This document shows positions 12,918-30,857 of a DNA stretch of 32,000 bases, piece by piece (position 1 is the first letter of the stretch; every line of letters begins with the position of its first letter). The stretch spans positions 342,162 through 374,161 of the forward strand of contig NC_009926.1 of assembly GCF_000018105.1 (NCBI RefSeq), written 5' to 3'. Position numbers and translations under genes: made by a program. This DNA is from Acaryochloris marina MBIC11017. GTDB lineage: Bacteria; Cyanobacteriota; Cyanobacteriia; Thermosynechococcales; Thermosynechococcaceae. The notes under the pieces are model-generated. The model worked only from the letters and a program-made list of their open reading frames with translations, ran no database searches and was not told where the DNA came from.

Positions 12918-13016
12918 TCCCAAGGGAGCGGGTGGGTGTTGACCACCGCATTGGAAACGCAATATACCAGGCAGTACCCACTAATTGTTTGAATGTTCAT
13001 TCCCTAGCAATGACTG

Positions 13017-13055: not shown

Positions 13056-13065
13056 ATTCCCAGTA

Positions 13066-13926: not shown

Positions 13927-14034
13927 CGCTATTTCCTCAATTGATTGATAGGTATGAAGTTGAGAATCTGGCTAGGTAATACAGATTCCGCGCGGATACT
14001 GAAAGTAGTGAGAGTTCAATCTTCCGTAGCTTTG

Positions 14035-14244: not shown

Positions 14245-14550
14245 TGGGGATCCTCGTTATAATTAAATGAAAGGATTTATTTACGACCTCCTGGGCTGGG
14301 AAGATCAAGGAGGTCGTTTTATTGTGGTTGGGTGGGAAGTCTGGGAGGTGGTATTGGGGATGCGATCGCGTTTACACACCGATCCACTCAAATATCTTTC
14401 TGCTCATCTGTGATTACATGGGGCAAGAAAGAAATGGAAGTTAGCTGTACTCCAATCCTGCCTGGCTTTTCAGATGAAAATTGCTTCAAGGCTTTTGTCT
14501 CCTCAGCAGCAAGAAAAGCATCTAGGGCTGTTTTGGAAGACAAGGCGAAA

Positions 14551-15909
14551 TAGCTAGGAGAGTGTTTAGATTTTTGTGTAAGCAGCAGTGTATTCAATAG
14601 TTGAATCGTGTTGGGAACAGAATAGCAAAATGGGACAGCGCCGCTTTCCAATTCAGAATTGGTCTGGTCCATCGCTTCGAAATATTCCTCATCGCTAGAA
14701 ACATCAATTTGTAGACAGACTCTTCATTAGGGAAAACCGCTTTGGTCTTAATCACCTTTCTCAGTGAGCGGTTGAGCGACTCAATGGCATTGGTGGTGTA
14801 GATAACCTTACGGATGGCCATTGGGTATTGAAACAACGGGGCAACATTATCCCAATGTCGTATCCAGATTTGGCTAATGCCAGGATACGTCTCGTCCCAT
14901 TTATGGGCAAATGCATCCAACGCAGCCTCAGACTCTTCCAAAGTGGCCGCTTGGTAAATGGGCTTGAGGTCTGCAGCTACGGCTCGACTTTCCTTCCACG
15001 GCACATGGCGAAGGCTATTACGAATAAGATGGACAATACAAACCTGCACCTGGGTCTGAGGGTAGACCGACTCAATCGCTTGAGGAAAACCTTTGAGTCC
15101 ATCACAGCAAGCAATCAAGATATCCTGAGTTCCTCGATTTTTAAGGTCTGTGAGCACCGAAAGCCAGAATTTTGCTCCCTCTCGTTCAGCGGCTCCTATC
15201 CATAATCCCAACAGTTCCTTGTTGCCCTCCACAGTCACTGCCAAAGCGACATAGACAGCTCGCTTGCTGACTTGACCATTGACTTTGATGTTCACATACA
15301 GCGCATCAAGATAGACAATCGGATACACCTCATCCAGCGGCCTTGAACGCCAGTCTTTGACCTCTTCCATGACGCTATTGGTGACGTCACTAATCAGAGC
15401 TTCAGAGATATTGGCCCCATACAGCTCCACCAATTGGGCTCGAATATCACGGGTGGTCATGCCCCGAGCATATAAGGCGATGATTTTCTCATCGAGCCCT
15501 GCGATGCGTCGCTGGCCTTTAGGCACCAGGACAGGCTCAAACTCGCCGCAACGGTCACGAGGAATCGATAGGTCCATCTCTCCTTGTTCAGACTGGACGG
15601 TCTTTTTCGAGTAACCATTGCGACTATTTCTGGGGCCATTAGAATTCTCATCACCTGACTGATCGTTGGAGGATTGCTGCAGGTGATGAGTCAATTCACC
15701 TGCAAGGGCTCGTTCCACTAGGCGTTTGCTGAGTCGTTTAAGCAGTCCTGATTCGCCCAGAATATCTTCCGGTTGAGGGTTCTCTCCGATGAGTTCATCT
15801 AACAGTTCATCGACTCGATTGGGAGCTTTTTTCTTTCTAGACATCGTACGGTCTCCTGATGTGTTTGGATCCTAGACCGCTTACACAAAACTCTGAACAG
15901 TCCCTAGCT
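14551..15909 (-). mobile_element. IS256-family insertion sequence (~1.35 kb)
   Basis: Single transposase ORF bounded by imperfect terminal inverted repeats: GAGAGTGTTTAGATTTTTGTGTAAGC (14558-14583) versus the reverse complement of 15878-15903, GGGACTGTTCAGAGTTTTGTGTAAGC. Both ends are flanked by TAGCTAG (14551-14557 and 15904-15910). Confidence 0.85.
14594..15844 (-). CDS. IS256/Mutator-family transposase
   Basis: 416-aa ORF with the family pattern ...VYPIVYLDALYVNIKVNG...VYVALAVTVEGNKELLGLWIG..EGAKFWLSVLTDLKNRG..DILIACCDGLKGFPQAI..VYP.TQVQVCIVHLIRNSL... Confidence 0.9.
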   Translation of the reverse strand: MSRKKKAPNRVDELLDELIGENPQPEDILGESGLLKRLSKRLVERALAGELTHHLQQSSNDQSGDENSNGPRNSRNGYSKKTVQSEQGEMDLSIPRDRCGEFEPVLVPKGQRRIAGLDEKIIALYARGMTTRDIRAQLVELYGANISEALISDVTNSVMEEVKDWRSRPLDEVYPIVYLDALYVNIKVNGQVSKRAVYVALAVTVEGNKELLGLWIGAAEREGAKFWLSVLTDLKNRGTQDILIACCDGLKGFPQAIESVYPQTQVQVCIVHLIRNSLRHVPWKESRAVAADLKPIYQAATLEESEAALDAFAHKWDETYPGISQIWIRHWDNVAPLFQYPMAIRKVIYTTNAIESLNRSLRKVIKTKAVFPNEESVYKLMFLAMRNISKRWTRPILNWKAALSHFAILFPTRFNY

Positions 15910-16673: not shown

Positions 16674-17189
16674 TTACAGATCCCCCCGAATCTCTTCAAT
16701 GACACCATCCCGCAGTACCATCTCGACCTGCATCTTGCGAATAAAGTGGTCGCCTTGCTTGACGTAAAAGTAGCTATCTACCTGGCCTTGTTCAACTTCC
16801 TCGCCCAGCTCCAATGTTCCGACCTTCTCCAGTTGCTGCAAGACTTGAGCTTTTTGCTGGAGCAGTTCGTTTTTGCGTTTTTCAGCTTGCACCTGGATGC
16901 CTTGGATCTGGTTCTGGGTTTCGGCAATAGTGCGGCCCTCTCCCCCAGTACTCTGAATGGTGTGCTGGCTCAGTTCACTCACCATCTGCTGGACTTGGGT
17001 ATCGAGCTGAGCTAATTGCTCATCCAACTGATCAACTTGGGACTGGAGAAGTTGCTGTGCCTCGTCTTTCCATATAGGAGTGACGATGGCCTTGATGGTG
17101 ATCGGACGATTGAGTAAGAGCTGATTAGATGATGGAGACTCAACCCAAAGTTCTGGTTTGGGCTGGGTGGGACGGTCTTGAATAAGCAT
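16674..17189 (-). CDS. coiled-coil protein, tentatively YlqD-like
   Basis: AAGGAG RBS. Central Q/E-rich heptad region and a C-terminal beta-like tail (YFYVKQGDHFIRKMQVEMVLRDGVIEEIRGDL) that resembles the YlqD family as I remember it. Confidence 0.55.
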   Translation of the reverse strand: MLIQDRPTQPKPELWVESPSSNQLLLNRPITIKAIVTPIWKDEAQQLLQSQVDQLDEQLAQLDTQVQQMVSELSQHTIQSTGGEGRTIAETQNQIQGIQVQAEKRKNELLQQKAQVLQQLEKVGTLELGEEVEQGQVDSYFYVKQGDHFIRKMQVEMVLRDGVIEEIRGDL

Positions 17190-17210
17190 GATTGCTCTCC
17201 TTAATTAGAT

Positions 17211-17417
17211 GGTTTTGAAGGTGACGGATAATATGCCACCGTTAATTTGCTAGTTGGCGGTGACGGATAATGTGCCACCAGCTTTATTCGCTCCAGTCGG
17301 AGGTGCCAGGTAATGTGCCACCGCTCTGATTTGCTTAGTTGGAAGTGACCGATAATCTGCCACCTTCCGAATTTGGCTGTGCGGTGACGGGTAATATGCC
17401 ACTCTTGTTATTTGCCG
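17211..17417 (-). repeat. array of five 39-43-bp direct repeats (iterons), each containing the backbone box
   Basis: The units start at about 17211, 17251, 17293, 17336 and 17379. The shared core is GGTGAC(G/C)G(A/G)TAAT(A/G/C)TGCCAC(C/T) followed by ..(A/T)TTTG(C/G)C. The box copies start at 17227, 17266, 17309, 17351 and 17390. Confidence 0.85.
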
Positions 17418-17655
17418 ATGATGGGGCGATGGTCCCCCGCAGCCACCAGCCACCAGCCCCAGCGATGAGGGCGACTAGCACGACGAGCCAACCCCAATAG
17501 CTGAAATCGCCAAGCACGGCCATGCGGTAGTCATGTTCTCTTTGTTGTTTGGCTGCTTTGCGGATGGCTTCTTGGTCTGCGAGGATCATGGCCCGTTCAC
17601 GGATGGCGATGGCCTCTTTCGACTGCATCGCCCACACCTGAAATTGGGTGTTCAT
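17335..17655 (-). CDS. small membrane protein (one TM), C-terminal tail reads into the iteron array
   Basis: ATG 17655 follows the upstream stop by 23 nt. The alternative GTG at 17709 overlaps the upstream gene. TM segment FSYWGWLVVLVALIAGAGGWW. The last ~27 codons overlap repeat units, so the true 3' extent is uncertain. Confidence 0.4.
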   Translation of the reverse strand: MNTQFQVWAMQSKEAIAIRERAMILADQEAIRKAAKQQREHDYRMAVLGDFSYWGWLVVLVALIAGAGGWWLRGTIAPSSANNKSGILPVTAQPNSEGGRLSVTSN

Positions 17656-17678
17656 CAGCTCCAACAAGATTTGACGTT

Positions 17679-18314
17679 CTAAACTTCCCGGACCTCGGCC
17701 TCCAAACACTTTCCCGGCACCGTCTCGCCTTCAAGAGCTTCTTGGGCTTCCTCTTTCGCCCATTCTTCGGCAAACATCTTCTTCAAGTCACGACTCAGCT
17801 GCTGCATATGGTACTTATGCGCGGCTTGCACCACCCGCTCTGAAGTCTTCCGGGCATTCTTGACGACTCGGCGGCAGGTTCGCAGTGAGTCAGCTTTTAA
17901 AGCTAACTTCATATCCTCGTCAACCTCCTCCACATCATCAATGGTTACTTCCTCCTCGGGTTCTTCGGTGCCCTGTAATTCAGCTTTGACCGCATCAACG
18001 GGGTCCATGCTTTCCTCAGAAACCCGCTCACAGACCAATGTGAACAGCGGGTGGTACAGGTCATTGCCCGTCTCAATCCCCTCAGCAGTAATGGCCTTGT
18101 GGATAGGCTTAAGGTCAACTTGATGGGTGTCAGCGGTGTAGATGCACCAGGCATGGGTGTAGTTATCAGCCGATTTCTCCTCTCTCAGCTTCACGACACC
18201 TTGCAGAGTTTCCAGGTCATAGCCGTCTTCACTCATTCCGCAGGCTCTCAGTAGATGACCGACTTGCTTGTCATCCATGCCGAGGGTTTGCATTAGATCA
18301 TTCATAATAGTCAT
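17679..18314 (-). CDS. hypothetical acidic protein (211 aa)
   Basis: ATG 18314 (MTIMNDLMQ...) has GGAGA about 10 nt upstream. The 72-codon extension to 18527 in the ORF track reads through three box copies and has junk-like composition. Confidence 0.55.
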   Translation of the reverse strand: MTIMNDLMQTLGMDDKQVGHLLRACGMSEDGYDLETLQGVVKLREEKSADNYTHAWCIYTADTHQVDLKPIHKAITAEGIETGNDLYHPLFTLVCERVSEESMDPVDAVKAELQGTEEPEEEVTIDDVEEVDEDMKLALKADSLRTCRRVVKNARKTSERVVQAAHKYHMQQLSRDLKKMFAEEWAKEEAQEALEGETVPGKCLEAEVREV

Positions 18315-18342
18315 TCGTTTATTTCTCCAAATGTTGAACTGT

Positions 18343-18480
18343 GGGAATGTACCACCGGGGGTTTTGAGAGTGGTGGAGTGAGGGGACATGGAAATATGCC
18401 CCCTCTTCCTGCTGAGGTCAGTCGTCCATAACGAACTCCTCGAATCTCGTCTGTGAATCATCCCAAGGGAATATGCCACC
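18343..18480 (-). promoter_or_regulatory. three backbone-box copies upstream of the 211-aa gene
   Basis: GGGAATGTACCACC (18343-18356), GGAAATATGCCCCC (18390-18403) and GGGAATATGCCACC (18467-18480). They lie between the stop at 18520 and ATG 18314. Confidence 0.5.
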
Positions 18481-18519
18481 AGCATTTTTTCGGTACTGGC
18501 ATGAGCCTTCCTAATCGAA

Positions 18520-18957
18520 TTAGTCATCCTCCTTCAACCCTGCATAGATACTTATTGCAGGGCTATCAGAATCTACCGCCGGGGGTTCCTCTTCTTCTCT
18601 TGGAGGTTCATAAGGCTCAGGGGGCGGCTGTACAGTCTCAGGTTCTACGACCATTGGGGCGGCTGTGGATGGAGCTGGTGAGGGTGGCGTCAATTCAGGA
18701 GAATCCCCATCAGCAGTAACCATAATCAATGCCAGTTCGTAAAACGTCTCAACCTGATCTCTTGAAATCAGGATGGCCTTGCGAACCTCAGCTACGGAAT
18801 TGGTTCGAAGGGCAACAACCACTGGCTTAAAGACGGCATAGAGAATCGTCACGCACTTAGTCGCAAACGTTCCGTAGAAGTGTTGCTTGGATGCTTGCAA
18901 GATTTCCTTATACTCTGCATTAGGGTATACAGCATCTACTTTTAATCGCTCAGGCAT
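18520..18957 (-). CDS. candidate ParR-like partition adaptor (145 aa)
   Basis: The start overlaps the ParM-like stop (TAATG) and has an AAGGAGG RBS. It has a short structured N-terminal half and a Pro/Glu-rich disordered tail (PPSPAPSTAAPMVVEPETVQPPPEPYEPPREEEEPP). The assignment rests on position and architecture only. Confidence 0.4.
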   Translation of the reverse strand: MPERLKVDAVYPNAEYKEILQASKQHFYGTFATKCVTILYAVFKPVVVALRTNSVAEVRKAILISRDQVETFYELALIMVTADGDSPELTPPSPAPSTAAPMVVEPETVQPPPEPYEPPREEEEPPAVDSDSPAISIYAGLKEDD

Positions 18958-20051
18958 TACACAACCTCCTTAACTGGAGCAGGTTGCAGTTGCATCACAG
19001 GGGCTGCATGTTGTCGCCAAATCAGATATAGATCGATAAATCTCTGCTGCTGAGACAACGACAATCGAAGTTGAGCAAATGTTGTCTTGATTTCCCTGCG
19101 AACCGGAGCGAGGATATCAGCCTTGACCTGGCATAAATCAGCCAAATAGTCTCCCCAGAAAAAGGAGCCTCCCCCGCCGACATACACACGCTTAGAATTC
19201 ATGAAGTCGGTATCCGCTGCCAAGTCATCACTCAGGTCAGTCCAAACTAAATCTTTGGCTTCTTTGAGTGCAGCTAGCTTAATCGGCTTCTCCTCTTCAG
19301 TGAGCATTGCCGATAATCCCCCTTCGCCCCAGGCCATCGCCTCCTCATACAGCAGCTTCGCCCCCGTCAATTCATTGCTGAAGGCAAACGGGAAGTTCCG
19401 CAAAATCTCAATGGTGCCGTACCCCGTCCAGGTATAAGCATTCGGCACCACATTCGCCTGCTCATCCTTGAGGTTGATAATCGTCACATCTCTGTGACCA
19501 AACATCAGGATTGAACAGGGGTACACGTTGGCGTAGCTGGCAAATCCTGCACCCTCTGGATGGACCTGGACCCGAACGGGATTACATGAAACTGTGTCAA
19601 TCCCATACTGGAAACTGCGGATATGCTTGAAAATCAGCTCCTCAGTTTCTCGGAAGTAGGGGGCTTCATTTGAAGGCAGCATCAGATCAATCTCAACATC
19701 CAGGGGGCTATCGATTTCGCTGATGTACTGACCCACAATCGACAGCACCTTAGCCACGGCATGGTGCTTTTTGATCCGATTCACCTTGGTCCGACGTACA
19801 GCCCCCTCGGCATACTCACCCACAATCCAATGGGCACCATCAAATGACAGGTGTGACCCTTGCCGATTGTTCACTAAGTTCAAAGATTCGTAATAGCTTG
19901 CCGTGACTTTGCGGATGGCACTCGATTGCAAAATCAAGTCCTCAACACCCACCTTGCCAGGGTGAGTGGTTTGGACAAGAACTTTGTTACCGGATGCCCC
20001 AGTATCGATTCCAAATTTGGCGATAGCGTTCATGGATTTTCGCTTCTCCAT
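18957..20051 (-). CDS. actin-like plasmid segregation ATPase (ParM/Alp family)
   Basis: Actin-fold motifs: phosphate-1 FGIDTGASGNKV, connect VHPEGAG, adenosine VYVGGGGSFFW. The phosphate-2 region is atypical (ILMFGHRDVTI). Start at ATG 20051, or at ATG 20033 with GGAG 12 nt upstream. The 20138 start in the ORF track reads through the iterons. Confidence 0.7.
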   Translation of the reverse strand: MEKRKSMNAIAKFGIDTGASGNKVLVQTTHPGKVGVEDLILQSSAIRKVTASYYESLNLVNNRQGSHLSFDGAHWIVGEYAEGAVRRTKVNRIKKHHAVAKVLSIVGQYISEIDSPLDVEIDLMLPSNEAPYFRETEELIFKHIRSFQYGIDTVSCNPVRVQVHPEGAGFASYANVYPCSILMFGHRDVTIINLKDEQANVVPNAYTWTGYGTIEILRNFPFAFSNELTGAKLLYEEAMAWGEGGLSAMLTEEEKPIKLAALKEAKDLVWTDLSDDLAADTDFMNSKRVYVGGGGSFFWGDYLADLCQVKADILAPVRREIKTTFAQLRLSLSQQQRFIDLYLIWRQHAAPVMQLQPAPVKEVV

Positions 20052-20074: not shown

Positions 20075-20095
20075 ACCCCAAATCACGATTCACAC

Positions 20096-20171
20096 AAATC
20101 CCCCTAAATCCCCACAAATCCCCTTGCAACTCCCCCAAATCCCCCTCGAAATAGGTGAGACTTGGGGGAAT
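20096..20171 (-). repeat. phased AAATCCCC(C) iterons, candidate parC-like centromere/operator
   Basis: Direct copies start at 20096, 20106, 20116 and 20137 (spacing 10, 10 and 21 bp). An inverted copy GGGGGAAT lies at 20164-20171. All are upstream of the ParM-like gene. Confidence 0.55.
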
Positions 20172-20328
20172 CCAGAGAATGACCTGAGAACTTGCAGGAA
20201 AGCTTGGAGTGGTGCTACTTTGAGGGCAGATTCAAGAGGTTTTGGAGGGGTCGCTGAGGCTCCCACACCCATCACCACTCCGAGGCACCGGAACGGAAAT
20301 TTACCCAATCGGACTGACCCTAAATTTT

Positions 20329-20427
20329 CGTAGTACATTCAGAAACATTTTTGTACTATCACGTAGTACTTCCGTAGTTGTTTTGTAACTTCACTTTGTA
20401 GTACACCGTCATATCTTTGTAGTTTTC
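20329..20427. other. candidate oriT region: AT-rich block with repeated (T)TTGTAGTAC / CGTAGTAC motifs
   Basis: CGTAGTACA 20329-20337, TTGTACTA 20351-20358 (inverted), CGTAGTACT 20362-20370, CGTAGTTG 20373-20380, TTGTAGTACA 20396-20405 and TTTGTAGTTTTC 20416-20427. The block lies in the divergent intergenic region immediately upstream of the relaxase gene. Confidence 0.35.
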
Positions 20428-20543
20428 ATGAGAACGATCACTTCTGTGGTCGATGGAATCGCTTTTTAAAAATTTCACAGCAGGTATTCCCATGCTTAAA
20501 ACTTTCCTGAAACATCTGAACGACTAAGCCAGGGGCCGATGTC

Positions 20544-23500
20544 ATGAAGACGATGCGGACCATCTATGGAGAAATGATTGACTATTACGATGAGGATGAA
20601 TCTCTCGTAGATGCTCCAGAGCGCTATTACAGCGAATCCGAGGTTATCACTGACATCGACCGCATGAGTACCGCTGTCTGGGTCGGCTCCAACGCGATTG
20701 TTCAAAAGTTAGGCACCTACGTTAAACGAGAGGACTTCAAAGCCCTCAGTCGAGGGTTTCTACCTGAAGCCTTAAAAAGTGTCGCGGGTGGTGCAGTCCA
20801 ACGGATTCGGGGCAAGAAACCCAACGAGGAAGACAAAGAACGCCATGCCCATGACGTGGTGCTGTCTGCTCCCAAAAGTGTGTCGATGGCCCTGCACTTG
20901 GAAGGGGATAACCGGATCTTTGATGCCCACATGGAGGCAGTCCTCGAAACGTTTGAGTTGCTTGAACGGGAGTATGCCCAGACCCGAATTCAAGTGAATG
21001 GGGTGCGCTCTGTCGTCGATACGGGCAATATGATTGCGGCGTTGATGCCCCATCACACTTCACGAGATGGAGATATGCAGCTCCACACCCATATGCTGAT
21101 CATGAATGGCACACAGGGGCCAGATGGTCGGTGGCGATCCCTCTCTCATGAAAAGCTGGCTCAGGCCAAGTGGATCGGCAGCTTCTATCGTCAGAAGTTA
21201 GCTGAGAAGGTCCAGCGACTGGGCTATCGCATCTACCAAACCAAGGATGCATTTGAGCTAGTGGGCTACGACCGTTCTGATGTCGAAGTCTTCAGCAAGC
21301 GTCATCGGGCCATCGTCAAAGCGGTTCGGGATGAAGGGCTAGAAGTTACTCCTGAGAACAAGAAGCTGAAGGTACTCCCCACTCGCAAGGCTAAGCGGGG
21401 TGTCGGTAAAAAGCTTGAAATCATCCAAGACCATTGGCGTGAAGAAGCCCGCTCTCAAGGGGTGGGCCATCCAGTATTGGCTGAACCTTTGGCCGTCCTA
21501 CCTGACCCAGGTAGAGCCAGGTATGAAGTTGAGAGTGCTATTCGCCATTATGCAGAGTGGTCCTCAATCTTTGAGAAGGATGACATCTATGCCTATGTCT
21601 TCAAGACCCTCAAGCGACAGGGCATGGCTATGGAACAGGTGGATGAGGCCATCAAGCAAAGCAAGGAACTGATCCCCGTTGACCGTGGATTCACCACCGT
21701 CACTGCCGTTGAAGAAGAAGCCCAGATCCATCAGCGCTGGATGGCAGGCCAAGGTCAAGCTCAGCCAATGGTCGCTCATCCTTCACTTGCTGGGATTTCG
21801 GTCAAGCTGAACGAAGACCAGGCCAAGACCATACTCAACACCCTCACTAGCACTGACCATTATCAAATCTGGCAAGGCTTTCCAGGGGTGGGCAAGTCCA
21901 GAACCTTGGGGGTACTCAAGACTTTACTCAATGGATCCGGTTTCACGATTCGGGGGTTCAGCCCTACCATCCCAGCCGCAAAGAAGCTCCAAGATGAGCT
22001 AGGCATCACGACCAACACCGTTGAGCATCTAGTTCTCCATCAAGTTGATGATAGCCCTAACCAAGTCTGGCTGATTGATGAAGCGGGCATGATGAGCCGA
22101 CGACAGATGAAGGTGATTCTGGAAAAGGCAGAGGCAGTCAAGGCACAAGTCATCTTCGTAGGGGATGCGGGCCAGAACTCTTCAATTGAAGCGGGCAATC
22201 CCTTCAAGTTTATGCAGGCCAATGGAGCCACCACTCACCGAATTGAGGAGATTATCAGGCAAAAAGTTGATGTCCAAAAGCAGGCCGTTGAACTGATTGC
22301 CAGAGGTAGAGGAATTGCAGCACTAGAACTCCTTGATGCTAATGGATATGTGATTGAGTCGGGCTGTAAAGCGGAAATGGCTCAAGCCGCAGCAGATCAG
22401 TACCTCGCTCTCCCCCTCAAAGAACAAGAGGAAACCCTGATTATCGCTGGTACCAATGAGGAACGACTCGATACGGAGCAAGCCATTCGTAGAGGGGAGA
22501 AACAAGCAGGACGGCTAGGGGAATCCAGCAAGATTGTTCAGCTCAAGTCCCGCAACTTGAGTATCGAGCAAAAGCGTCGGGTGGATTGGTATCGCAAAGG
22601 GGATTACGTCCGATTACTTCAAACCTCCCATACCGCATCCATCAAGCGAGGAGAACTCTACAAGGTGGAAAAACGCGAAGGGGATGAGCTGGTGGTATCT
22701 TCCTTTGGCGGTCGCCTCTATCGATTCAAACCCGCGAAATACAAACTAAAGGAGGTCTACAGTGCCCATAAATTTGATGTGGCCGTTGGGGACAAGTTGC
22801 GGTGGACGACAACGATCAAAGAAAACAACTGGATTAACGGTCAGCAGCTCACGGTCACCGCCCTTGATGGCTTGAACATGAAAGTCAGAGACCATGAGGG
22901 ACGTTCCCATGATGTGCCCCTCACGCAACCGCTTGCCTTGGAATATGACCGGGTGTGGACTTCCTACCGCTCCCAGAGTGGCAGCAAGAAACGGACGATT
23001 GTCATCACCACCAATGACCGGACCTCCAGCCGGGAGCCGTTCCTCGTCGATATTTCTCGGCAAGAACATGAATTGACTGTCTATACCGAGAGCCTGAACA
23101 AACTCAGGAATCGGGTCGCCAAATCCAATGCCCAAAAAAGTGCTTTAGATCTAATCGAGGGAACCTATGGAAACCAACGAACAACAACAGCAGATCATCA
23201 ACGAGCTTCGAGTCCAGTTAGCCCCACTCACGGACGCGATCACCATCTTGACCAATCAAGTCGAAGAGGTCCAAGCCCAGAACCAACACATCCTAGACGA
23301 GAACAGAGAACTCAAGTCCCAAGTCAGGGAGCGGATCAACACCATTCCAATGGAAGTCAAAGCCGTTCTCAACCTGTTCATCCAGGAATTCAAGGAGGCG
23401 ATGGCATCCAAGAAACCCTCGGATATGAGCGAGTCGATCAAGGAACTCGCCAAGGCAATGGACAACTTAAGGTTGAAAATCGAGGATACCAGCGTCTTGC

Positions 23501-26249
23501 AGTTGACGATGAGCGACAAGGTATTGGAGGCCGCAGAGGAGATCATGCAGATCAAGGACAAGCTCCCCCGACACGCACCACCCAAGACGGTCGCTCAACA
23601 GAATGGGGGGCAACCTCCTCAGACATAGCTAATTGGGTGATGCATTGGTCTGAGGAGAATGAGCTTGCAGCAAGCGGGTTGGAGGATCACTTGCTAGCCC
23701 TTGATAAGGATATAGAGTCACTCACTCAAAGTCTAGAACCATATTCCTTTGAAGGTTTGGAAGAACTGGCTGAGATTGTTGAAAATGCAGATAAACAACA
23801 AGATCTCAGCCAGAACCTCACTTATATTGCCCAAACTATAGATAACTTTAACCAGATAATCACCCAAAGTCTTGATTCTAGACCTTTTATAGGCTTGGAA
23901 GAATTGGCTGAGATTGTTGAAAATGCAGATAAACAACAAGAACTCAGCCAAAACCTTAGTTATATTTCCCGATCTATAGATAACTTTGACTACACTATCG
24001 AGCAATTCCTAAGCCAGCAACGAATCAAGACCATTGCTGATGCCGTAGCAGAATGGCGAACGGGTCAGGAGCTGGCAAATGCCGTCACTGAAATGGTGGA
24101 TGTCCTGACTCAGGGCACTGAAGGGCTAGACCGGGCAATCATCCGACTCCAAGCGGGGATTGAGACCACCCAATCTCTGGATGTCCAATTCCCCGCAATG
24201 GTTGAGTTAGTCGATGCCGTTCAAGATTGGCAAACTGAGGTGGAAGTTTCTGCGGTCATAGGCGAGGTGCAGGAGCTGGTTGAGTCAATCACGGTGCCTC
24301 AATTCCCTGGAATGAATGACCTGGCTCAGGATGTCCATGACCTCAATGAAGAACAAGCCTTAGCTGAGAGTGGCTTGGTTGAGCAGTTAGCTGAGTTGAC
24401 CACTCAGATCAATACCTTAGTTGAACCCCAGCAAGCTCAGTTTGAGGGCATGGCACAGCTAGCTGAGGTGGTTACTGAACTCCAGCAAGGTCAATCCCTC
24501 GCTCAGGTGCAGCCCCAGCTCCAGGCCATCACCCAGCAGATTGAAGCGTTTAACGCCAAGCAACCCACTTATTCTTTTGCCAAGATTAAGGAGCTGGCCG
24601 ATACCGTCAGTGAGTGGAGGGCACATGAATCCATCACTCAACACATTGGCGCACTCAATGATCTGACCGTTCGCGCTCAACGGAGTCTGAAGACCTTCCC
24701 AGCTATGCTGCAATTGGCTAAATCCGTGAAGGCAATGCGCTCTGTGGATGCACTCATGAATGGGCCAGTCGCAGACCAGATCAAGGAAGTCGCCCAACAG
24801 TTAACGGACAAGGGGATGAGTATCACTCCTAAGCCAAAGACCATTGACGATCAGGTGTTCTGGAAGCCGGACTATACCGGGGTAGAACGACCTGACCACA
24901 TTGACGAGAAGCATTGGAATGAATGGGTGGCAAGCTGCGCCCATCCTGATGTGATTGCTGCTCGGCTCCAATCCATTGCTGATGATCAGGTGATTGATCG
25001 GTTGCTCGGAGCCAAGATTGAAGACATCGCCACTCGCAGACGGGATGGGTCGTTCAAGACGGTTCGCAGCCAGTATCACATTGAGCCGATCCGAGCCTTG
25101 ATTAATGATCGGTCGCATCCTGAAGTGTTGAGCTATCAAGAGCTAGCTGAAGGGGGAGGCTGGTGGGCTGATGCTGGAGTGGATCCGCTGTCCTTTGAAG
25201 AACTTGGACCCAATGAGGAACCTACACTGAGTCTGTATGGCACCTTCAAGCCTGATACTCCCCGCATCGACGTAGACAAAACTCGCAGAGCTAGGGCTAA
25301 AGACTCCAATGCCCCAACCAAATATCGCAAGTATGAGAATCCATTGGGAACCAAGCGCGAACTCTTTGAGCGAGACATGGCCTTCCAACCCGTCCCAAAT
25401 CATATCGCTGAGCGGATCTTTGATAAGTATGGTGTTGTGCAAACGGATGAGGAACGGACCAAGGGATTCTGGTACACGGTCTACAAGCATCCTGAGATTC
25501 CCATCTACCGGACTGAAGGAGACAAGAAAGATGCGGCATTAGTCTCTCAAGGAAGAGTCGTCATTGGTGGTCAGGGGGTCAACATCGGCTATCGGGCCAA
25601 GAACCAGCACGATGAAAAGCTCGAAAGACGAGTACTGCATCCTCATCTAGACGTGTTTGCGGTTCCAGGCAGAGAGTTCAGGTATGCCCATGACTGGGAT
25701 TCTGAGCAGTCCACGGTCTGGAACGTGCGCCGTGAAATGGTCAGAGAAGCTGAACTCATTGAAGAAAGAGACTGCAAGACATGGAGAATTCCTTGGGATT
25801 CTGAACAAGGGAAAGGCGTCGATGACCTGATCGCTAATCATGGCCCCATCGCCTTTGAGCGGGCTGACAAGAATGCCTATCCGATGGAGCGGGAAATCAC
25901 GATGCACTATCGGGGCCAGTACACCCAGATTAAGAAGCGATTGAATCGGCACTTTGGATGCGCGGTGCACGATATTCCCATTTACCTAGAAGCGATGAAG
26001 GATGGGGACGAGATGGATGGCATTCGGGTCCTATGGGAGTCTTCCACTGCCCGGTCCTTCCAGCATTACCATGACAAGCAGCACTATATCGAGGGCATCA
26101 TCAAGCTCTCGGATGCCTATCGTAGACTCGTCAGAAAAGACGGTGACCCCAAGGCCATGCAAATCCTCGTCAACAGACTAAAAAGGCCCCGACCCATTAT
26201 CAAGGTCGAGGCCAGAAGTCGGAATATAAAACGAGGCTATGGACGTTAG
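20544..26249 (+). CDS. MOBF-type relaxase / RecD-like helicase fused through a repeat-rich linker to a C-terminal TOPRIM (primase-like, DUF3854-like) domain
   Basis: Relaxase: Tyr pairs IDYY...ERYY and His triad HHTSRDGDMQLHTHMLIMN. Helicase: P-loop GFPGVGKS (21876-21899), Walker B LIDEAGMM (22071-22094) and VGDAGQ. TOPRIM: TEGDKKDAA (from 25512), HDWDSE (25689-25706) and KGVDDL. A single frame is open for 1901 codons. Confidence 0.85.
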   Translation: MKTMRTIYGEMIDYYDEDESLVDAPERYYSESEVITDIDRMSTAVWVGSNAIVQKLGTYVKREDFKALSRGFLPEALKSVAGGAVQRIRGKKPNEEDKERHAHDVVLSAPKSVSMALHLEGDNRIFDAHMEAVLETFELLEREYAQTRIQVNGVRSVVDTGNMIAALMPHHTSRDGDMQLHTHMLIMNGTQGPDGRWRSLSHEKLAQAKWIGSFYRQKLAEKVQRLGYRIYQTKDAFELVGYDRSDVEVFSKRHRAIVKAVRDEGLEVTPENKKLKVLPTRKAKRGVGKKLEIIQDHWREEARSQGVGHPVLAEPLAVLPDPGRARYEVESAIRHYAEWSSIFEKDDIYAYVFKTLKRQGMAMEQVDEAIKQSKELIPVDRGFTTVTAVEEEAQIHQRWMAGQGQAQPMVAHPSLAGISVKLNEDQAKTILNTLTSTDHYQIWQGFPGVGKSRTLGVLKTLLNGSGFTIRGFSPTIPAAKKLQDELGITTNTVEHLVLHQVDDSPNQVWLIDEAGMMSRRQMKVILEKAEAVKAQVIFVGDAGQNSSIEAGNPFKFMQANGATTHRIEEIIRQKVDVQKQAVELIARGRGIAALELLDANGYVIESGCKAEMAQAAADQYLALPLKEQEETLIIAGTNEERLDTEQAIRRGEKQAGRLGESSKIVQLKSRNLSIEQKRRVDWYRKGDYVRLLQTSHTASIKRGELYKVEKREGDELVVSSFGGRLYRFKPAKYKLKEVYSAHKFDVAVGDKLRWTTTIKENNWINGQQLTVTALDGLNMKVRDHEGRSHDVPLTQPLALEYDRVWTSYRSQSGSKKRTIVITTNDRTSSREPFLVDISRQEHELTVYTESLNKLRNRVAKSNAQKSALDLIEGTYGNQRTTTADHQRASSPVSPTHGRDHHLDQSSRRGPSPEPTHPRREQRTQVPSQGADQHHSNGSQSRSQPVHPGIQGGDGIQETLGYERVDQGTRQGNGQLKVENRGYQRLAVDDERQGIGGRRGDHADQGQAPPTRTTQDGRSTEWGATSSDIANWVMHWSEENELAASGLEDHLLALDKDIESLTQSLEPYSFEGLEELAEIVENADKQQDLSQNLTYIAQTIDNFNQIITQSLDSRPFIGLEELAEIVENADKQQELSQNLSYISRSIDNFDYTIEQFLSQQRIKTIADAVAEWRTGQELANAVTEMVDVLTQGTEGLDRAIIRLQAGIETTQSLDVQFPAMVELVDAVQDWQTEVEVSAVIGEVQELVESITVPQFPGMNDLAQDVHDLNEEQALAESGLVEQLAELTTQINTLVEPQQAQFEGMAQLAEVVTELQQGQSLAQVQPQLQAITQQIEAFNAKQPTYSFAKIKELADTVSEWRAHESITQHIGALNDLTVRAQRSLKTFPAMLQLAKSVKAMRSVDALMNGPVADQIKEVAQQLTDKGMSITPKPKTIDDQVFWKPDYTGVERPDHIDEKHWNEWVASCAHPDVIAARLQSIADDQVIDRLLGAKIEDIATRRRDGSFKTVRSQYHIEPIRALINDRSHPEVLSYQELAEGGGWWADAGVDPLSFEELGPNEEPTLSLYGTFKPDTPRIDVDKTRRARAKDSNAPTKYRKYENPLGTKRELFERDMAFQPVPNHIAERIFDKYGVVQTDEERTKGFWYTVYKHPEIPIYRTEGDKKDAALVSQGRVVIGGQGVNIGYRAKNQHDEKLERRVLHPHLDVFAVPGREFRYAHDWDSEQSTVWNVRREMVREAELIEERDCKTWRIPWDSEQGKGVDDLIANHGPIAFERADKNAYPMEREITMHYRGQYTQIKKRLNRHFGCAVHDIPIYLEAMKDGDEMDGIRVLWESSTARSFQHYHDKQHYIEGIIKLSDAYRRLVRKDGDPKAMQILVNRLKRPRPIIKVEARSRNIKRGYGR
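23167..23628 (+). CDS. 153-aa coiled-coil protein encoded in the +1 frame inside the relaxase ORF
   Basis: GAGG at 23157-23160 lies 6 nt before the ATG, and an in-frame TAA lies at 23152-23154. Coding-type codon-position bias is in this frame rather than frame 0. The product is an amphipathic helical sequence. Confidence 0.55.
   Translation: METNEQQQQIINELRVQLAPLTDAITILTNQVEEVQAQNQHILDENRELKSQVRERINTIPMEVKAVLNLFIQEFKEAMASKKPSDMSESIKELAKAMDNLRLKIEDTSVLQLTMSDKVLEAAEEIMQIKDKLPRHAPPKTVAQQNGGQPPQT
23754..24029 (+). repeat. 138-bp (46-codon) tandem duplication inside the relaxase linker
   Basis: 23754-23891 and 23892-24029 are near-identical over the first ~70 nt (gg.ttggaagaa.tggctgagattgttgaaaatgcagataaacaacaaga.ctcagcca.aacct). 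They encode GLEELAEIVENADKQQ.LSQNL.YI...IDNF twice. Further degenerate copies follow. Confidence 0.8.
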
Positions 26250-26528: not shown

Positions 26529-28724
26529 TTATCGGGACATGGAAACTTCTCGTTTGGGCTGTTCTTTCTTCTCCACGGGGGGACGGGCAAGGTTCTTTTT
26601 AATCTTGGCAATGAGCTTGCTAGAATCTAGTCCTTTCTCTCGCCTCCGATGAATCGTATCTTTCTGTTCTTGGGTAAATCCAGCGAACTCATCCTGGACT
26701 TCTGCCGTAGGATGCTTGGACTGGGAAGACGCTACTTGTTGATTCTCAGGCTCAGTGGGCTGTTCTTTATCATTGGGCTTGGGAGCTTCCGCCTCGGTCT
26801 TCTGGCCTTTAGTTTCACTCTGCTGCTGCGCATCCTTGGGGATATCAGCCTCAGCCTTGATATCCTTTCCAGAAAGTCCATATCGATCTGGAATCGCAAT
26901 ACCATTTTGAATCCTAAGAATCGTGCGAGTGCCTACCTTAATCGTCAATGTCCCTTTGAATTTCTCTGGATTCCTCAGTGCCTCTCGAATCATCCGAGAC
27001 TGTTCTAAATTAACGGAACTGCGATTATGATCGATTATCCCGTCATCATTTAGTCGAAATATCTCTTTCTGATTTAAAAACACTCGCATATTGCCAATTT
27101 CAATATTGCGACTTAGCTTCTCAACAATATCCTCGTTGAGCATGCGGAGTGGGTCAAGGTCTTCAGATTCCGAGGCTTTCGCTTTCGGTGCTTCCGCTTC
27201 AGGTGCTTGAGAGGGTTCAGCCCTTTCTGGGTCTGAGGAGTTGCGGACCACAGCCTTCGCTTCCTCCTCACTCATACCCTCGTCTTGACCCTGCATCACG
27301 ACCAGCTCGTCATAGTATTCCTGCAACTGCGGATCTTCGCTGATGTATTCTTGAGTGTCAGCATAGGTTAGCTCTTCGTCCAGGGCTTTAGACAATAACT
27401 CCGCATATTGGTCTTGGCTTGTGGATTCAGTCTGTACCTCTGCCCCCTGCTCAAAGGCATCAAAGTTAGCCTCAGTGGTGACGAGTTTCTGAACGTCTTC
27501 TAGGTCTACCCCATTAACAGCAGCTTGAGCCACGACCTTCTGATCCAGCTCACTCAATAACGTTGGATTCTCACCGAGGCGAGACTGAATATCCTCCCAG
27601 GTCAAATCTGGATTCTTCTCAAATTCACCCAGTAGTTGAGAATATTGCTGTTGGGCATCCGTTGATAGTTCCACCGATGGATTCACGACAGAAGCATTCA
27701 CTTCCAATACTGTTTGAGCTTCAGGCTCCTGGGTCAGCTCCTGATTAACCTCTGGGGTGGGGTTATCTAGTTTGTATTGCGCCTCCACTGACTTTGCTGT
27801 CTCAGCTAGATAAACAGAGGTATCTTGAAGCTTCGCGTCAGCCATCTGAGATACATTTGGTCCCTGGGAGATAATCGCGGTTGCTTCATCCGGGCCTTTC
27901 CCTGCTTTGAGCGCTTGGTAGAAGACTTGCTTGTCATAGTCAGCTCCTAAGTCGGGCTGATTCTGGAGAGTCTCCTGAATGCGCTCATAGGTGAGATTGG
28001 GGTCATTCTGTTGCTCAGATAGGATCTTTACATATTCATCTCGTCGCTCCATATCGCGCTCTGTGGGGATGGAGGCTTGGTTCTGTGCTTCAGCCATTGT
28101 TGCTTGTCTCCTTTGTACGGTTTCCATTGCACTACGAACGTTCTGCTGCACTTGCTCTGGCAGCTTGCTCAAGGTCTCTTCAAACCAATCCTTGGCCCGG
28201 TTGATGTAGTGGTTGGTCATCCTCCACATATGAACCACTGGACGAGCCACCACTGTAGGAATGCCCTGTCTGGCATAGCTAATGGCTAGCTTGCTCGTGT
28301 CCACGATGCCTTTCCCGATCATCGTCGGGGCGGCAAACCCACTCAAGGGCCGTGCCCAGGCATCTGTCTTTGCCAACATGTCTGCGGTTCTCACATTCGC
28401 CCAGGCATTGAAAGCACTCTGCCTCCCCCATCCAGGCTGTATCTGACCCGCTATCTCAGCAAAGTTCTTGGCGATCTGATCCGCTGCAACGCCATGTATC
28501 CCTGAGTGCATCAGATGAGTGGCCTGACCCACTACCCCCGCCACGGCAGGGCCAACGATGGGAGCATGAGTCGCGGCCACCGCAGCAGCAGGAGGCAGGG
28601 CGGCAAACTGGATCAGTTTTTTAGCCACTCGCATAGTGGGAGCAGCCTGGAAAAAGAGTTGTTCTTCTTCCCGTAGTTCCCGATACTTTGCACTGATGAA
28701 ATTCTGAGATTCAAGTTTTTCCAT
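26529..28724 (-). CDS. large uncharacterised protein (731 aa) in the coupling-protein operon
   Basis: GGAGAA RBS. The N-terminal third is Gly/Ala-rich and hydrophobic. The centre has three ~65-aa repeats (QY..LL.....P.LT.E.IQ..L...P.L....D..V). The C-terminal domain is followed by a Lys/Glu/Pro-rich tail. No family recognised. Confidence 0.7.
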   Translation of the reverse strand: MEKLESQNFISAKYRELREEEQLFFQAAPTMRVAKKLIQFAALPPAAAVAATHAPIVGPAVAGVVGQATHLMHSGIHGVAADQIAKNFAEIAGQIQPGWGRQSAFNAWANVRTADMLAKTDAWARPLSGFAAPTMIGKGIVDTSKLAISYARQGIPTVVARPVVHMWRMTNHYINRAKDWFEETLSKLPEQVQQNVRSAMETVQRRQATMAEAQNQASIPTERDMERRDEYVKILSEQQNDPNLTYERIQETLQNQPDLGADYDKQVFYQALKAGKGPDEATAIISQGPNVSQMADAKLQDTSVYLAETAKSVEAQYKLDNPTPEVNQELTQEPEAQTVLEVNASVVNPSVELSTDAQQQYSQLLGEFEKNPDLTWEDIQSRLGENPTLLSELDQKVVAQAAVNGVDLEDVQKLVTTEANFDAFEQGAEVQTESTSQDQYAELLSKALDEELTYADTQEYISEDPQLQEYYDELVVMQGQDEGMSEEEAKAVVRNSSDPERAEPSQAPEAEAPKAKASESEDLDPLRMLNEDIVEKLSRNIEIGNMRVFLNQKEIFRLNDDGIIDHNRSSVNLEQSRMIREALRNPEKFKGTLTIKVGTRTILRIQNGIAIPDRYGLSGKDIKAEADIPKDAQQQSETKGQKTEAEAPKPNDKEQPTEPENQQVASSQSKHPTAEVQDEFAGFTQEQKDTIHRRREKGLDSSKLIAKIKKNLARPPVEKKEQPKREVSMSR

Positions 28725-28778: not shown

Positions 28779-29133
28779 ACCGTCCAAACCCCCGATTTTG
28801 GCCTCGGTTCCGATTCTGGGTGAGCTTGTGGCCGTGGGTTTCCACCGCGACTTTGAGTTGGGCACTCTTCACATACCGCTCCGCCATCTTGGTTGGGTCT
28901 TGCACTTTCTCGGCATAGTCGCTCATCCGTAGCTTGGTCTTAATCACATCCGTGGGGGTGTTATTCCGTATCTCCTTCTTCGCCAGTTCCATTGCCTGTT
29001 CAGCAGTCTCGATCTTGACCGCCACTCGCGGCTTGCGGAGGGCGACGGCATTGATGATGACGCTGTTGGTGGCATTCACGGCCTGCTGGCCGATTTGCAA
29101 CGCTTCTCTAAATTGCTGTTCTTCGCTACTCAT
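28777..29133 (-). CDS. small hypothetical protein (118 aa) with a basic RG-rich tail
   Basis: The ATG overlaps the coupling-protein stop (ATGA). Helical body and the tail NRNRGQNRGFGR. No family recognised. Confidence 0.6.
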   Translation of the reverse strand: MSSEEQQFREALQIGQQAVNATNSVIINAVALRKPRVAVKIETAEQAMELAKKEIRNNTPTDVIKTKLRMSDYAEKVQDPTKMAERYVKSAQLKVAVETHGHKLTQNRNRGQNRGFGR

Positions 29134-30857
29134 GCGGCTTTCTCCTCTTGTTGCTTCAATTTGTGGGATTCAACTTCTTGGGTAGAGGGCAGCAAGGCAT
29201 CCGCAGACACCATGCGGTCGGACATGATTTGTTCTGGAGAATCTAACACCCGCTCTTGGGCTATCCGCACCATCTGCTTATGGACATGGCTGTTGTACAT
29301 CCGCTCACATTCGGTGAACCGCTGCATGTCCGTGCCATTCCGCTTCTTCAAGTTGAAGCGCATCCGAATGGGCCGATCATCCATGCCGGGGTTGGTGCAG
29401 ATAAATTCCCCTTTCTTCAATCGCTTGATATCTGAAGCGGTAATCAGCCGCTTCTTCTTCTCCTGTTCATTGCGGGAGCGGCTGTTGCCCATCTTCCCGT
29501 AGCTGCGAGATTTGGAATGGTAGTGCTTGGTGTACTCCCCCAAGTCCGCACTCAGGTCTTCTCGGACTTTGTAGCTCCCACTCTTGAATATGAATTGGGT
29601 GGAGGTGTTATCAAAGATGGACTCTGAGGTCTCCGACTGATATTTAATCTTGGGTTGGCTATAGCTCTGCATGGACACAAAGGAATAGAACCCATAGCTC
29701 CGATCCAAGGACACCACTTCTTCAAAACTCGGCAGCATCAGTCGGGCGAATTCATCTAGGAACACACCAAAAGGCCGATCCCGTTCCGTATCCTCATTCA
29801 AGTTGCGCTGAATTAAAAGGTGAATGGCAACAGCGACTAATGGGGCCGTAGCTTTCTTGGCTTGTCCATCCAACTCAAAGAAGATGATTTGCTTACCCGG
29901 TAGGTCCAAAGGAATGGTGGATTGGGTGGGTTCGCGCCCATCAATGGACAGACAGGGGATGGTCTGCCGATTGACCATTGGTAAGAGATAGTTGATGCCA
30001 CTCGCTAATATGCCGCCAGCGGTATCTTGGGTGCCCGTCACGCTCATCAGGCCCACGAGCTGTTGCCTCACCCACATGCCTAAATCGCTATCTACCTTGA
30101 ATGCGCCTTCTTGATCGGCCATTTGAATCCGCTCTGCGATACCCGGCAGGCCCATCAAAGCCCATACCATCGGCAAGTCGGAATAGTCGGCCCGCTTCGC
30201 CATCATCAACAGGGCTTGCAGGAAGTACTCCGCATGATTGTCGAAGAAGGGATGCTTGCCTGAAAGATTGACGATCACGTTATCGGACAAGGTTGAGGCG
30301 ATGGACCGCGCTCTCAATGAGTCATCAGCATCTTGCATAAATTTTAGGTAGTCAAAGCCATGACTGTATCGCTTGCCGGGGGCAAAGCAGTAGCACTCAT
30401 ATGGATCTGGTTGCTTGAGGGCAAAGGGGATGAATTTCTTCTTGAGAGTACCCTTCACATCAAAGACAATCAGGGTGTGCTCCTGGCGTATAGCATCTGC
30501 CAAGGCTAGTTCAATCACCGTAGCGGTCTTACCCTTACCAGACCCACCCACGATGGTGACGAGGGGCTGAAGGTCCGGGAGGATCAGGGGGTCATCGCTG
30601 CCCAGGCGAAGGGCAATTTCATCCCGTTTTCGGTCTCTGATTTGCTTGAGTCCCAGCATCTTAGCTCGATGCTGCTCCCGTCTCGTGGCCCACCGGGCAT
30701 CATCGGGTTCGCGTCTCGTCTCATCCTCAAACCACCACAGGGCAATTACGATCAGGGCCAATAAACCCGTCAACCAGGGGAGAGGGCCACTGAAAAGTGG
30801 GGACAGGTCAACCCCTTCAGATTGGGGTTGAGGAGGCTGTTCGGTATGCTGCGACAT
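29130..30857 (-). CDS. type IV coupling protein (VirD4/TraG/TrwB family ATPase)
   Basis: AAGGAGG RBS. N-terminal TM LPWLTGLLALIVIALWWF. Walker A GGSGKGKT. Walker B-like FGVFLDEFARL. Size and layout are typical of T4CPs. Confidence 0.9.
   Translation of the reverse strand: MSQHTEQPPQPQSEGVDLSPLFSGPLPWLTGLLALIVIALWWFEDETRREPDDARWATRREQHRAKMLGLKQIRDRKRDEIALRLGSDDPLILPDLQPLVTIVGGSGKGKTATVIELALADAIRQEHTLIVFDVKGTLKKKFIPFALKQPDPYECYCFAPGKRYSHGFDYLKFMQDADDSLRARSIASTLSDNVIVNLSGKHPFFDNHAEYFLQALLMMAKRADYSDLPMVWALMGLPGIAERIQMADQEGAFKVDSDLGMWVRQQLVGLMSVTGTQDTAGGILASGINYLLPMVNRQTIPCLSIDGREPTQSTIPLDLPGKQIIFFELDGQAKKATAPLVAVAIHLLIQRNLNEDTERDRPFGVFLDEFARLMLPSFEEVVSLDRSYGFYSFVSMQSYSQPKIKYQSETSESIFDNTSTQFIFKSGSYKVREDLSADLGEYTKHYHSKSRSYGKMGNSRSRNEQEKKKRLITASDIKRLKKGEFICTNPGMDDRPIRMRFNLKKRNGTDMQRFTECERMYNSHVHKQMVRIAQERVLDSPEQIMSDRMVSADALLPSTQEVESHKLKQQEEKAA

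Follow-up and report, generated by a model that had tools for sequence, protein, structure and literature searches.

Does a plasmid relaxase that carries a primase-like domain at its C-terminus serve the transfer of its plasmid, or does it also act as the initiator of plasmid replication? This question is raised by a stretch of 32,000 nucleotides (nt) of Acaryochloris marina MBIC11017 DNA (contig NC_009926.1, positions 342,162 to 374,161; hereafter the window), in which one unbroken open reading frame (ORF) of 1901 codons, nt 20544..26249 on the plus strand, encodes a protein of 1901 amino acids (aa). A preliminary description of the window had read this single ORF as a MOBF relaxase with a RecD-like/TraI helicase, a long repeat linker and a DUF3854 region with TOPRIM hallmarks. 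Pfam, NCBIfam and PDB comparisons agree with this assignment, and all of the motifs quoted at the time were recovered where they had been placed. On balance, we lean towards the view that the product is a trifunctional conjugative DNA-processing protein, in which a relaxase and a helicase are joined to a tethered DnaG-like module that would prime the complementary strand. The features discussed below are collected in Table 1.

The N-terminal region of the protein matches the Pfam TrwC profile (aa 12-303, E 4.6e-63, 213.9 bits against a cut-off of 25) as well as the NCBIfam MobF model NF041492 (E 1.4e-71, 241.5 bits; curated cut-off 100). Tyrosine pairs (YY) are located at aa 14-15 and aa 28-29, and the histidine triad of the relaxase, HHTSRDGDMQLHTHMLIMN, is found at aa 170-188 (nt 21051-21107), with the pattern HxxxxxxxxxxHxH of a three-histidine metal motif. 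The region that follows matches AAA_30 (aa 421-605, E 2.9e-50) in addition to TraI_hel_assoc_N and AAA_19, and contains both a Walker A motif (GFPGVGKS, aa 445-452, nt 21876-21899) and a Walker B motif (DEAG, aa 512-515, within nt 22071-22091). When aa 1-900 were compared by sequence with solved structures, F TraI (E 1.9e-42) and R388 TrwC (E 1e-34) scored best, while the helicase part retrieved PDB entries 5n8o (TraI) and 3e1s (RecD2). The first half of the TIGR02760 TraI model could be aligned to aa 27-880. However, the equivalog cut-offs for F-type TraI were not reached, with scores of 318.7 bits versus 929.85 for TIGR02760 and 224.6 versus 2212 for PRK13709, and the protein is therefore to be regarded, as far as these profile scores indicate, as a MOBF relative rather than an F TraI ortholog. 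The HUH domain, the paired tyrosines with the histidine motif and the superfamily 1B (SF1B) helicase that define MOBF membership are all recognisable in the sequence, and the corresponding catalytic activities are predicted.

At the other end of the protein, the Pfam family DUF3854 (PF12965) was identified with an E value of 3.1e-41 and 140.7 bits against a gathering score of 23, the match covering profile positions 1-128 of 130. This domain contains TEG at aa 1657-1659, HDWDSE at aa 1716-1721 and GKGVDDL at aa 1756-1762. When CyRepA proteins are included in the alignments, the TOPRIM glutamate E1658 (nt 25515-25517) and the subsequent G-x-KK are invariant, and at least 90% conservation is seen for both the DxD residues D1717/D1719 (nt 25692-25700) and the KG-DD residues D1760/D1761 (nt 25821-25826). 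Upstream of the Pfam domain lie two conserved motifs, HW-EW (aa 1457-1461) and KYENP (aa 1596-1600). The preliminary description had associated the segment KYRKYENPLG (aa 1593-1602) with DUF3854; it is indeed a hallmark of the family, invariant across its members including CyRepA, but lies approximately 40 aa upstream of the Pfam DUF3854 envelope. A KYENP-type motif located upstream of the TOPRIM core presumably resembles motif III of DnaG.

The link to CyRepA-type initiators drawn in the preliminary description proved to be correct. BLASTP aligns aa 1456-1806 with residues 6-304 of Slr7037, the CyRepA1 protein of pSYSA, at 28% identity (E 5e-37), with all of the conserved motifs in common. 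Experiments have validated both CyRepA1 and CyRepA2 as replication proteins of plasmids (PMC10079941, PMC10899382), and the homology of the module to CyRepA1 thus suggests that it acts somewhere in the initiation of DNA synthesis. For CyRepA itself, a relation between DUF3854 and Toprim has only been suggested (PMC10079941, PMC6066503, PMC10899382). Only about 130 helical residues follow the module in the window protein, and neither a PF02399 nor a DEXDc match was obtained there. As the CyRepA helicase half is missing, the protein does not, judged by its domain content, belong to the CyRepA1 family of replication (Rep) proteins.

An AlphaFold2 (AF2) model of aa 1441-1901, built on 24 homologs, reached a pLDDT (predicted local distance difference test) of 87.9 and a pTM (predicted template modelling score) of 0.85. 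A Foldseek search of the PDB with this model placed the RNA-polymerase domain of M. tuberculosis DnaG at the top three positions (probability 0.97-0.99, E ~1e-2, template modelling (TM) score 0.34/0.46). When predicted viral structures were searched, the best matches were nearly all TOPRIM primases of the DnaG/twinkle type, with E values down to 5e-7 and a probability of 1.0. The alignments with these viral primases span 320-450 columns, which means that the fold match goes beyond the TOPRIM core. Taken together, the structural comparisons support a DnaG-type RNA-polymerase fold without amounting to a strong global superposition. DnaG and RepB' had both been put forward for structural comparison in the preliminary description; the catalytic fold of DnaG-type primases is indeed the best match, whereas the non-TOPRIM RepB' was the wrong comparator. 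On the basis of its predicted fold and its catalytic residues, the module is described here as a DnaG-like TOPRIM domain that belongs to DUF3854 and is homologous to the CyRepA N-terminal module.

According to the mechanism we favour, which would serve a conjugative or mobilisable cyanobacterial plasmid, the N-terminal MOBF HUH relaxase would nick the origin of transfer (oriT), probably in the intergenic region upstream of its own gene, and would stay covalently bound to the 5' end. The SF1B helicase would unwind the transferred strand, and the neighbouring coupling protein would pass the relaxase-DNA adduct to the type IV secretion system (T4SS). A long flexible/helical linker of variable length would tether the C-terminal DnaG-like TOPRIM module, which comprises DUF3854 and an N-terminal subdomain and may synthesise primers on single-stranded DNA. 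The recipient could then make the complementary strand, and the donor perhaps the replacement strand, independently of host priming.

Several observations weigh against this proposal. The structural match to the PDB is weak (E 1e-2, TM 0.34-0.46), and at E values up to 10 the module matches none of the Pfam families Toprim, Toprim_2, Toprim_3, Toprim_4, DUF3991 or DnaG; the Pfam search advocated in the preliminary description thus returned TrwC, AAA_30 and DUF3854, but not Toprim. No named primase was matched by the module in PHROGs, NCBIfam or the PDB sequences either. The sequence-profile matches that it gave in the PDB, to coiled-coil proteins and FtsY, were discarded as spurious, since they derive from linker and CyRepA-helicase columns. 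A zf-CHC2 zinc-binding domain was not found with Pfam, and the module contains neither clustered cysteines nor an obvious template-recognition element. A comparison with E. coli DnaG by hhalign, for which an approximate DnaG sequence was used, aligned only motif VI (GKGVDDL with GEDPDTL) at 5% probability and is not usable. Among the homologs, P0178, a relaxase-helicase of 38% identity, is genuinely without DUF3854, which implies that the module is not needed for relaxase function. Furthermore, the metagenomic protein P0099 (2426 aa) combines TrwC, AAA_30 and DUF3854 in one chain with DUF3991-Toprim_2, the canonical conjugative primase module. The presence of both in P0099 suggests that DUF3854 and the classical Toprim primase may not be redundant. 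Finally, several plasmids keep the fusion in the absence of any recognisable T4SS.

These findings bear on an alternative that we regard as unlikely yet worth serious consideration, namely that the TOPRIM module does not prime, and is instead a metal-dependent nuclease or strand-transferase, a module that binds DNA or recruits the host replisome, or an effector of anti-defence or establishment that travels with the DNA. The fold also occurs in nucleases, topoisomerases and RecR, and both RecR and gyrase are among the weak PDB matches returned by Foldseek. The lack of a primase sequence-family match and of a zinc finger, as well as the separate Toprim_2 primase of P0099, would be readily accommodated by such a function, and CyRepA2 is thought to drive primer-free rolling-circle replication, a puzzle that its authors note (PMC10079941). 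Conservation of all acidic ligands in the alignments appears to fit priming and non-priming functions alike. What argues against the alternative is that the best structural matches span the whole DnaG RNA-polymerase domain and are nearly all primases, together with the presumed likeness of the KYENP-type motif to DnaG motif III.

The linker between the helicase and the C-terminal module measures approximately 570 aa and consists of a probably disordered stretch followed by degenerate helical repeats. The long repeat linker that had been reported at about 23170-24800 is thus real, and can be divided into a G/Q/R/S-rich part, for which no Pfam match was obtained over aa 877-1030, and approximately seven helical repeats over aa 1069-1430. 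The repeats start with F-x-[GAK]-[LMI]-x-x-L-A and are spaced 38-50 aa apart. The first two copies (nt 23748-24011) are the best preserved, with 82% DNA identity, and the linker repeats are not called at the DNA level by Tandem Repeats Finder. The AF2 model of the repeat linker is all helix, at a low-confidence pLDDT of 43 that leaves no fold to search. In different homologs, helicase and DUF3854 are separated by anything from 181 to 1256 aa, so that the linker behaves as a tether of freely extendable length.

The C-terminal tail has a composition that may be relevant to transfer. The last 30 aa carry a net charge of +9 and terminate in KRGYGR. CyRepA proteins have less basic tails than the fusion clade (Mann-Whitney p = 7e-5), the mean net charge of the last 30 aa being +2.2 in 32 full-length fusions versus -0.5 in CyRepA proteins. 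A glycine at position -4 is found in 18/51 fusion-clade tails compared with 5/53 for CyRepA, and many of the former end in [RK]-G-x-x-[RL]. VirB/D4-type secretion signals are known to include basic C-terminal tails, and it is possible that the tail of the window protein serves as a secretion signal or is recognised by the coupling protein. The basic tails lend weak support to translocation of the protein into the recipient.

The preliminary description had presented the fusion of a MOBF relaxase-helicase with a TOPRIM domain as unfamiliar, a view that does not survive a database survey. A tblastn search of PLSDB with the C-terminal module identified 199 plasmids; all of the genera named are cyanobacterial, and many of the matches fall within genes annotated 'MobF family relaxase'. 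Plasmids with the fusion occur in Acaryochloris, Picosynechococcus PCC 7002 (pAQ6), Nostoc PCC 7120 (gamma), Tolypothrix, Aulosira and others. When 1.84 billion cluster representatives (50% identity) were searched exhaustively with HMMER, 966 matches were obtained, and segments were mapped on the best 150. Among these 150, at least 31 cluster representatives have relaxase, helicase and DUF3854 in one chain, and approximately 20 further representatives have helicase and DUF3854 and end at contig ends. CyRepA-type proteins, with approximately 1000-1100 aa and DUF3854 near the N-terminus, form a separate, lower-scoring class. In these searches, DUF3854 was seen mainly in cyanobacterial plasmids. 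Judged from the proteins compared, the fusion is the norm in a large cyanobacterial clade of MOBF relaxases. No earlier description of a relaxase-DUF3854 fusion was found in a literature search.

As to whether homologs keep the fusion or split it, a survey proposed in the preliminary description, the fusion is kept, and the splits that were checked proved to be frameshifts or the result of an IS1 insertion. P0005 and P0166 were rejected as unfused relatives, being frameshifted genes in long-read assemblies of 12x and 3x coverage, and P0169 was rejected as a natural split because an IS1 insertion divides the gene. On an 804-kb JGI contig (L017, 8001-14006), an IS1-family insertion splits the fusion gene, separating its helicase part from DUF3854; a ResT/TelK-type protelomerase is also encoded on this contig and suggests that the replicon may be linear.

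An ortholog of 1937 aa with identical architecture is encoded on a plasmid of A. marina S15. Identity between the two proteins is highest in DUF3854 (93%), followed by the relaxase (90%) and the helicase (87%), and falls to 77% in the helical repeats, 68% in the disordered stretch and 44% in the last 130 aa. It could be argued that the fusion is a decaying gene, a chimera of annotation or assembly, or a carrier of a functionless relic domain, given that several database relatives are fragmented and that both the linker and the last ~130 aa evolve fast. We consider this highly improbable. The 5.7-kb frame is intact and the S15 ortholog has the full same architecture, DUF3854 is the best conserved part with its catalytic residues invariant, and the fusion is kept across cyanobacterial orders, while the fragmented relatives are explained by low-coverage assemblies or an IS insertion.

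The homology of the module to the N-terminal module of a validated Rep, CyRepA1, also raises the possibility of a vegetative role. The protein, or its C-terminal product, could be the Rep of the plasmid, in which case no separate Rep would be needed. Either the relaxase would nick an origin of replication that doubles as oriT, with the helicase unwinding and the TOPRIM module priming the displaced strand, or DUF3854 would act in the manner of CyRepA. We consider this improbable, although relaxase-driven replication is known for ICEBs1 and SXT/R391 elements and counts towards it. No Pfam-recognisable Rep gene occurs within the 32-kb window, as had been observed in the preliminary description; the further claim that the fusion explains this absence is weak, since separate replicons co-occur with it. 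Indeed, the window is a slice of a plasmid that is probably larger than 100 kb. The closest DNA relatives of the locus are Acaryochloris plasmids of 187-394 kb with 80-85% identity. CyRepX-type Reps have no Pfam domain (PMC10899382) and are thus invisible to a Pfam search. A missing Rep therefore means little.

Comparison of complete plasmids provides arguments in both directions. Six Acaryochloris plasmids (pMB08, 89.7 kb, and five others) carry the fusion plus a separate CyRepA1 family gene, whereas the four closest plasmids are absent from the matches listed (30 of 32 records) in a search with the CyRepA1 helicase part of pMB08. On pCC7120gamma, pAQ6 and some other plasmids, DUF3854 occurs nowhere but in the fused copy, which counts towards an initiator role. 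A 34-kb plasmid of Nostoc UHCC 0870 encodes the fusion, ParM, ParAB, toxin-antitoxin and restriction-modification systems, with no T4SS and no recognisable Rep. Three complete Nostocales plasmids of 34-46 kb (L004, L005 and L020) have no recognisable T4SS, and the MobF-helicase-DUF3854 gene, at 60-82% identity, is the only one they have in common. However, a D5_N/DUF5906 primase-helicase-type protein is encoded on L020, and DnaB on L005. These candidates on two of the three plasmids weaken the argument that only this gene is shared, and suggest that the fusion rides different replicons, as a mobile MOB module would. Exactly one mobF gene is present on every large plasmid of two A. marina strains (PMC9324425), which would again be in line with an initiator.

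Other observations speak against such a role. The fusion is without the helicase half of CyRepA, and in the three complete small plasmids the extremes of the cumulative GC skew lie away from the gene, with an amplitude approximately 2 standard deviations above block shuffles. The C-terminal product that had been proposed to start at ATG 23640 (M1033) also finds no support: there is neither a plus-strand promoter-like site inside the ORF nor a Shine-Dalgarno sequence, and the methionine is retained in the one close ortholog compared. The co-occurrence of separate replicons (CyRepA1, D5-like, DnaB) counts in favour of a transfer protein, and argues against the fusion being necessary for replication. 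It is doubtful, then, that in part of the cyanobacterial plasmids, including the Acaryochloris megaplasmids, the fusion is the initiator with one upstream nick site serving as both oriT and origin of vegetative replication (oriV). Equally doubtful is the division of labour that this would entail: leading-strand synthesis set off by the relaxase, unwinding by the helicase, and priming of the displaced strand by the tethered primase.

The proposed transfer protein can be compared with a number of known systems. It shares with R388 TrwC and F TraI an N-terminal HUH relaxase with paired tyrosines and a histidine triad, followed by an SF1B helicase, and a coupling protein gene is likewise nearby. 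In contrast, TrwC and TraI have no primase-type domain, while the window protein adds the 570-aa linker and a module of approximately 440 aa; its gene neighbour is a divergent ParM-like gene, with no TrwA/TraY-like gene recognised in the window. In MobA-RepB' of RSF1010/R1162, a relaxase covalently bound to the transferred strand brings its own primase, a likeness to the window protein that is functional only. The RSF1010 protein combines a MOBQ relaxase and the non-TOPRIM RepB' without a helicase domain, whereas the window protein has a MOBF relaxase and a module of predicted TOPRIM/DnaG-like fold. In RSF1010, the primase has a second task in vegetative replication and is additionally produced as a separate protein from an internal start, for which the window protein offers no supported counterpart.

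With CyRepA1 (Slr7037, pSYSA) and CyRepA2 (pCC5.2 ORF B), the window protein has in common the DUF3854 module and its shared motifs. In these Reps, the module is N-terminal and precedes a DEXDc/UL9-like helicase, with no relaxase present, whereas the window protein carries it at the C-terminus, following a relaxase and an SF1B helicase unrelated to theirs. Replication activity has been demonstrated for CyRepA only. TraC1 (RP4) and SogL (ColIb/R64) are Toprim primases that are transferred to the recipient and prime complementary-strand synthesis there (PMC5512222). A C-terminus resembling SogL is present in MOBQ4 relaxases (PMC6856555), and relaxases fused to a helicase or a primase have been described in reviews (PMC3297438). 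TraC1, SogL and MOBQ4 bring TOPRIM-type primase modules to conjugative elements, fused to the relaxase in the case of MOBQ4, and resemble in this what is predicted for the window protein. Unlike TraC1 and SogL, the window module does not match Toprim_2, Toprim_3, Toprim_4 or DUF3991, and DUF3854 is a separate family. As for DnaG and the phage T7 gp4-twinkle primases, the TOPRIM glutamate and the DxD motif are conserved and the predicted fold is the best match, at TM scores of only 0.34-0.46, but the window module has no CHC2 zinc-binding or DnaB-interaction domain and no similarity detectable by hidden Markov models. By analogy, the logic of the window protein would be that of MobA-RepB', TraC and Sog, realised with a relaxase class and a primase fold that are both unrelated to theirs.

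Table 1 Features of the relaxase locus in the window (aa, residues of the 1901-aa protein)
Feature	Coordinates	Strand	Basis
Full protein: MOBF relaxase, SF1B helicase, linker, DUF3854/DnaG-like module	20544..26249	+	
TrwC/MobF HUH relaxase domain, aa 12-303	20577..21452	+	Pfam, NCBIfam, PDB matches
TraI/RecD-like SF1B helicase, aa ~400-870	21741..23153	+	Pfam, TIGR02760, PDB matches
Low-complexity G/Q/R/S/T-rich segment, probably disordered, aa 877-1030	23172..23633	+	Composition
All-helical degenerate repeat linker, aa 1031-1440	23634..24863	+	Repeat comparison, AF2
Predicted DnaG-like module, homologous to CyRepA1 N-terminal module, aa 1441-1880	24864..26183	+	AF2, Foldseek, BLASTP
Pfam DUF3854 (TOPRIM core), aa 1642-1768	25467..25847	+	Pfam
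Basic C-terminal tail, candidate type IV secretion signal	26157..26246	+	Composition
ParM/actin-like partition ATPase, divergent from relaxase gene	18957..20033	-	Pfam ALP_N
Conserved intergenic region, candidate oriT	20210..20509	.	Conservation, repeats
731-aa protein between relaxase and coupling protein genes	26529..28724	-	ORF
Type IV coupling protein (TraG/TrwB/VirD4 family)	29130..30857	-	Pfam TraG-D_C, TrwB_AAD_bind, T4SS-DNA_transf

The surroundings of the fusion gene form a ParM, relaxase and coupling protein transfer module. The divergent arrangement of the ParM-like and relaxase genes is also found in pAQ6, pCC7120gamma and A. marina S15. Between the two genes, the region 20210-20509 is 90% identical to L001 (A. 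marina S15 plasmid unnamed10), which is above the identity of the flanking genes, and contains five (C/T)GTAGT(A) repeats (20329-20423). The 14-mer CACCCATCACCACT at 20266-20279 recurs upstream of the relaxase gene in the distant locus L006 (4218-4231), although one match of the CACCCATCACCACT type in the window is not unlikely by chance. Taken on conservation and repeats, this region is a reasonable candidate for oriT.

Downstream of the relaxase gene and on the opposite strand, the 731-aa protein, a small ORF and the TraG/TrwB-type coupling protein are encoded. The coupling protein gene lies 2.9 kb downstream of the fusion gene and is syntenic in pCC7120gamma and A. marina S15; in pCC7120gamma, the order ParM, relaxase, coupling protein continues into VirB10-type genes. 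The 731-aa protein gave no convincing family match, only a marginal FF-domain, and its similarity to the pCC7120gamma gene in the equivalent position is weak (26% over 117 aa). Unannotated genes occupy its position in related plasmids.

A number of further features were observed. The ParM-like gene likely starts at ATG 20033 (minus strand) rather than at TTG 20138, and five to six 10-bp iterons of the CCCC-N-AAAT type immediately upstream of it (20076-20150) look like a parC-type centromere. In L001, a 138-aa ORF upstream of mobF (4120-4536) partially duplicates the relaxase N-terminus, with 33% identity to aa ~29-141 of the window protein; its counterpart in the window is only an 11-codon remnant, MLKTFLKHLND, at 20493-20528. 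Downstream of the ParM-like gene, an operon at 16674-18957 (minus strand) encodes proteins of 145, 282 and 124 aa and a YlqD-family protein, and the YlqD gene is also present in L001 and in L016. The part of the window at 1-15844 is cargo, encoding a DUF4259 protein, a STAS protein, a response regulator with two receiver domains, a Cache/HAMP hybrid histidine kinase and a 960-aa RTX-repeat protein; an IS256-family (Transposase_mut) gene at 14594-15844 marks its boundary.

The architecture reported here is already present many times in databases, where it is annotated only as a relaxase (RefSeq 'MobF family relaxase'), and a relaxase with a helicase plus a CyRepA-type primase-like module was not found discussed in the literature searched. 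A role in replication is at present a minority reading. If true, it would mean that plasmids hundreds of kilobases in size can use a relaxase-based replicon, would partly close the gap in the known replication systems of large cyanobacterial plasmids, and would explain why many of these have no identified Rep. If, as we favour, the module primes the transferred strand, cyanobacterial conjugative plasmids would deliver a priming enzyme covalently attached to the incoming strand. This would bear on their host range and on the design of better conjugative and shuttle vectors for cyanobacteria, and would offer a first functional handle on the DUF3854 domain of the CyRepA Rep proteins.

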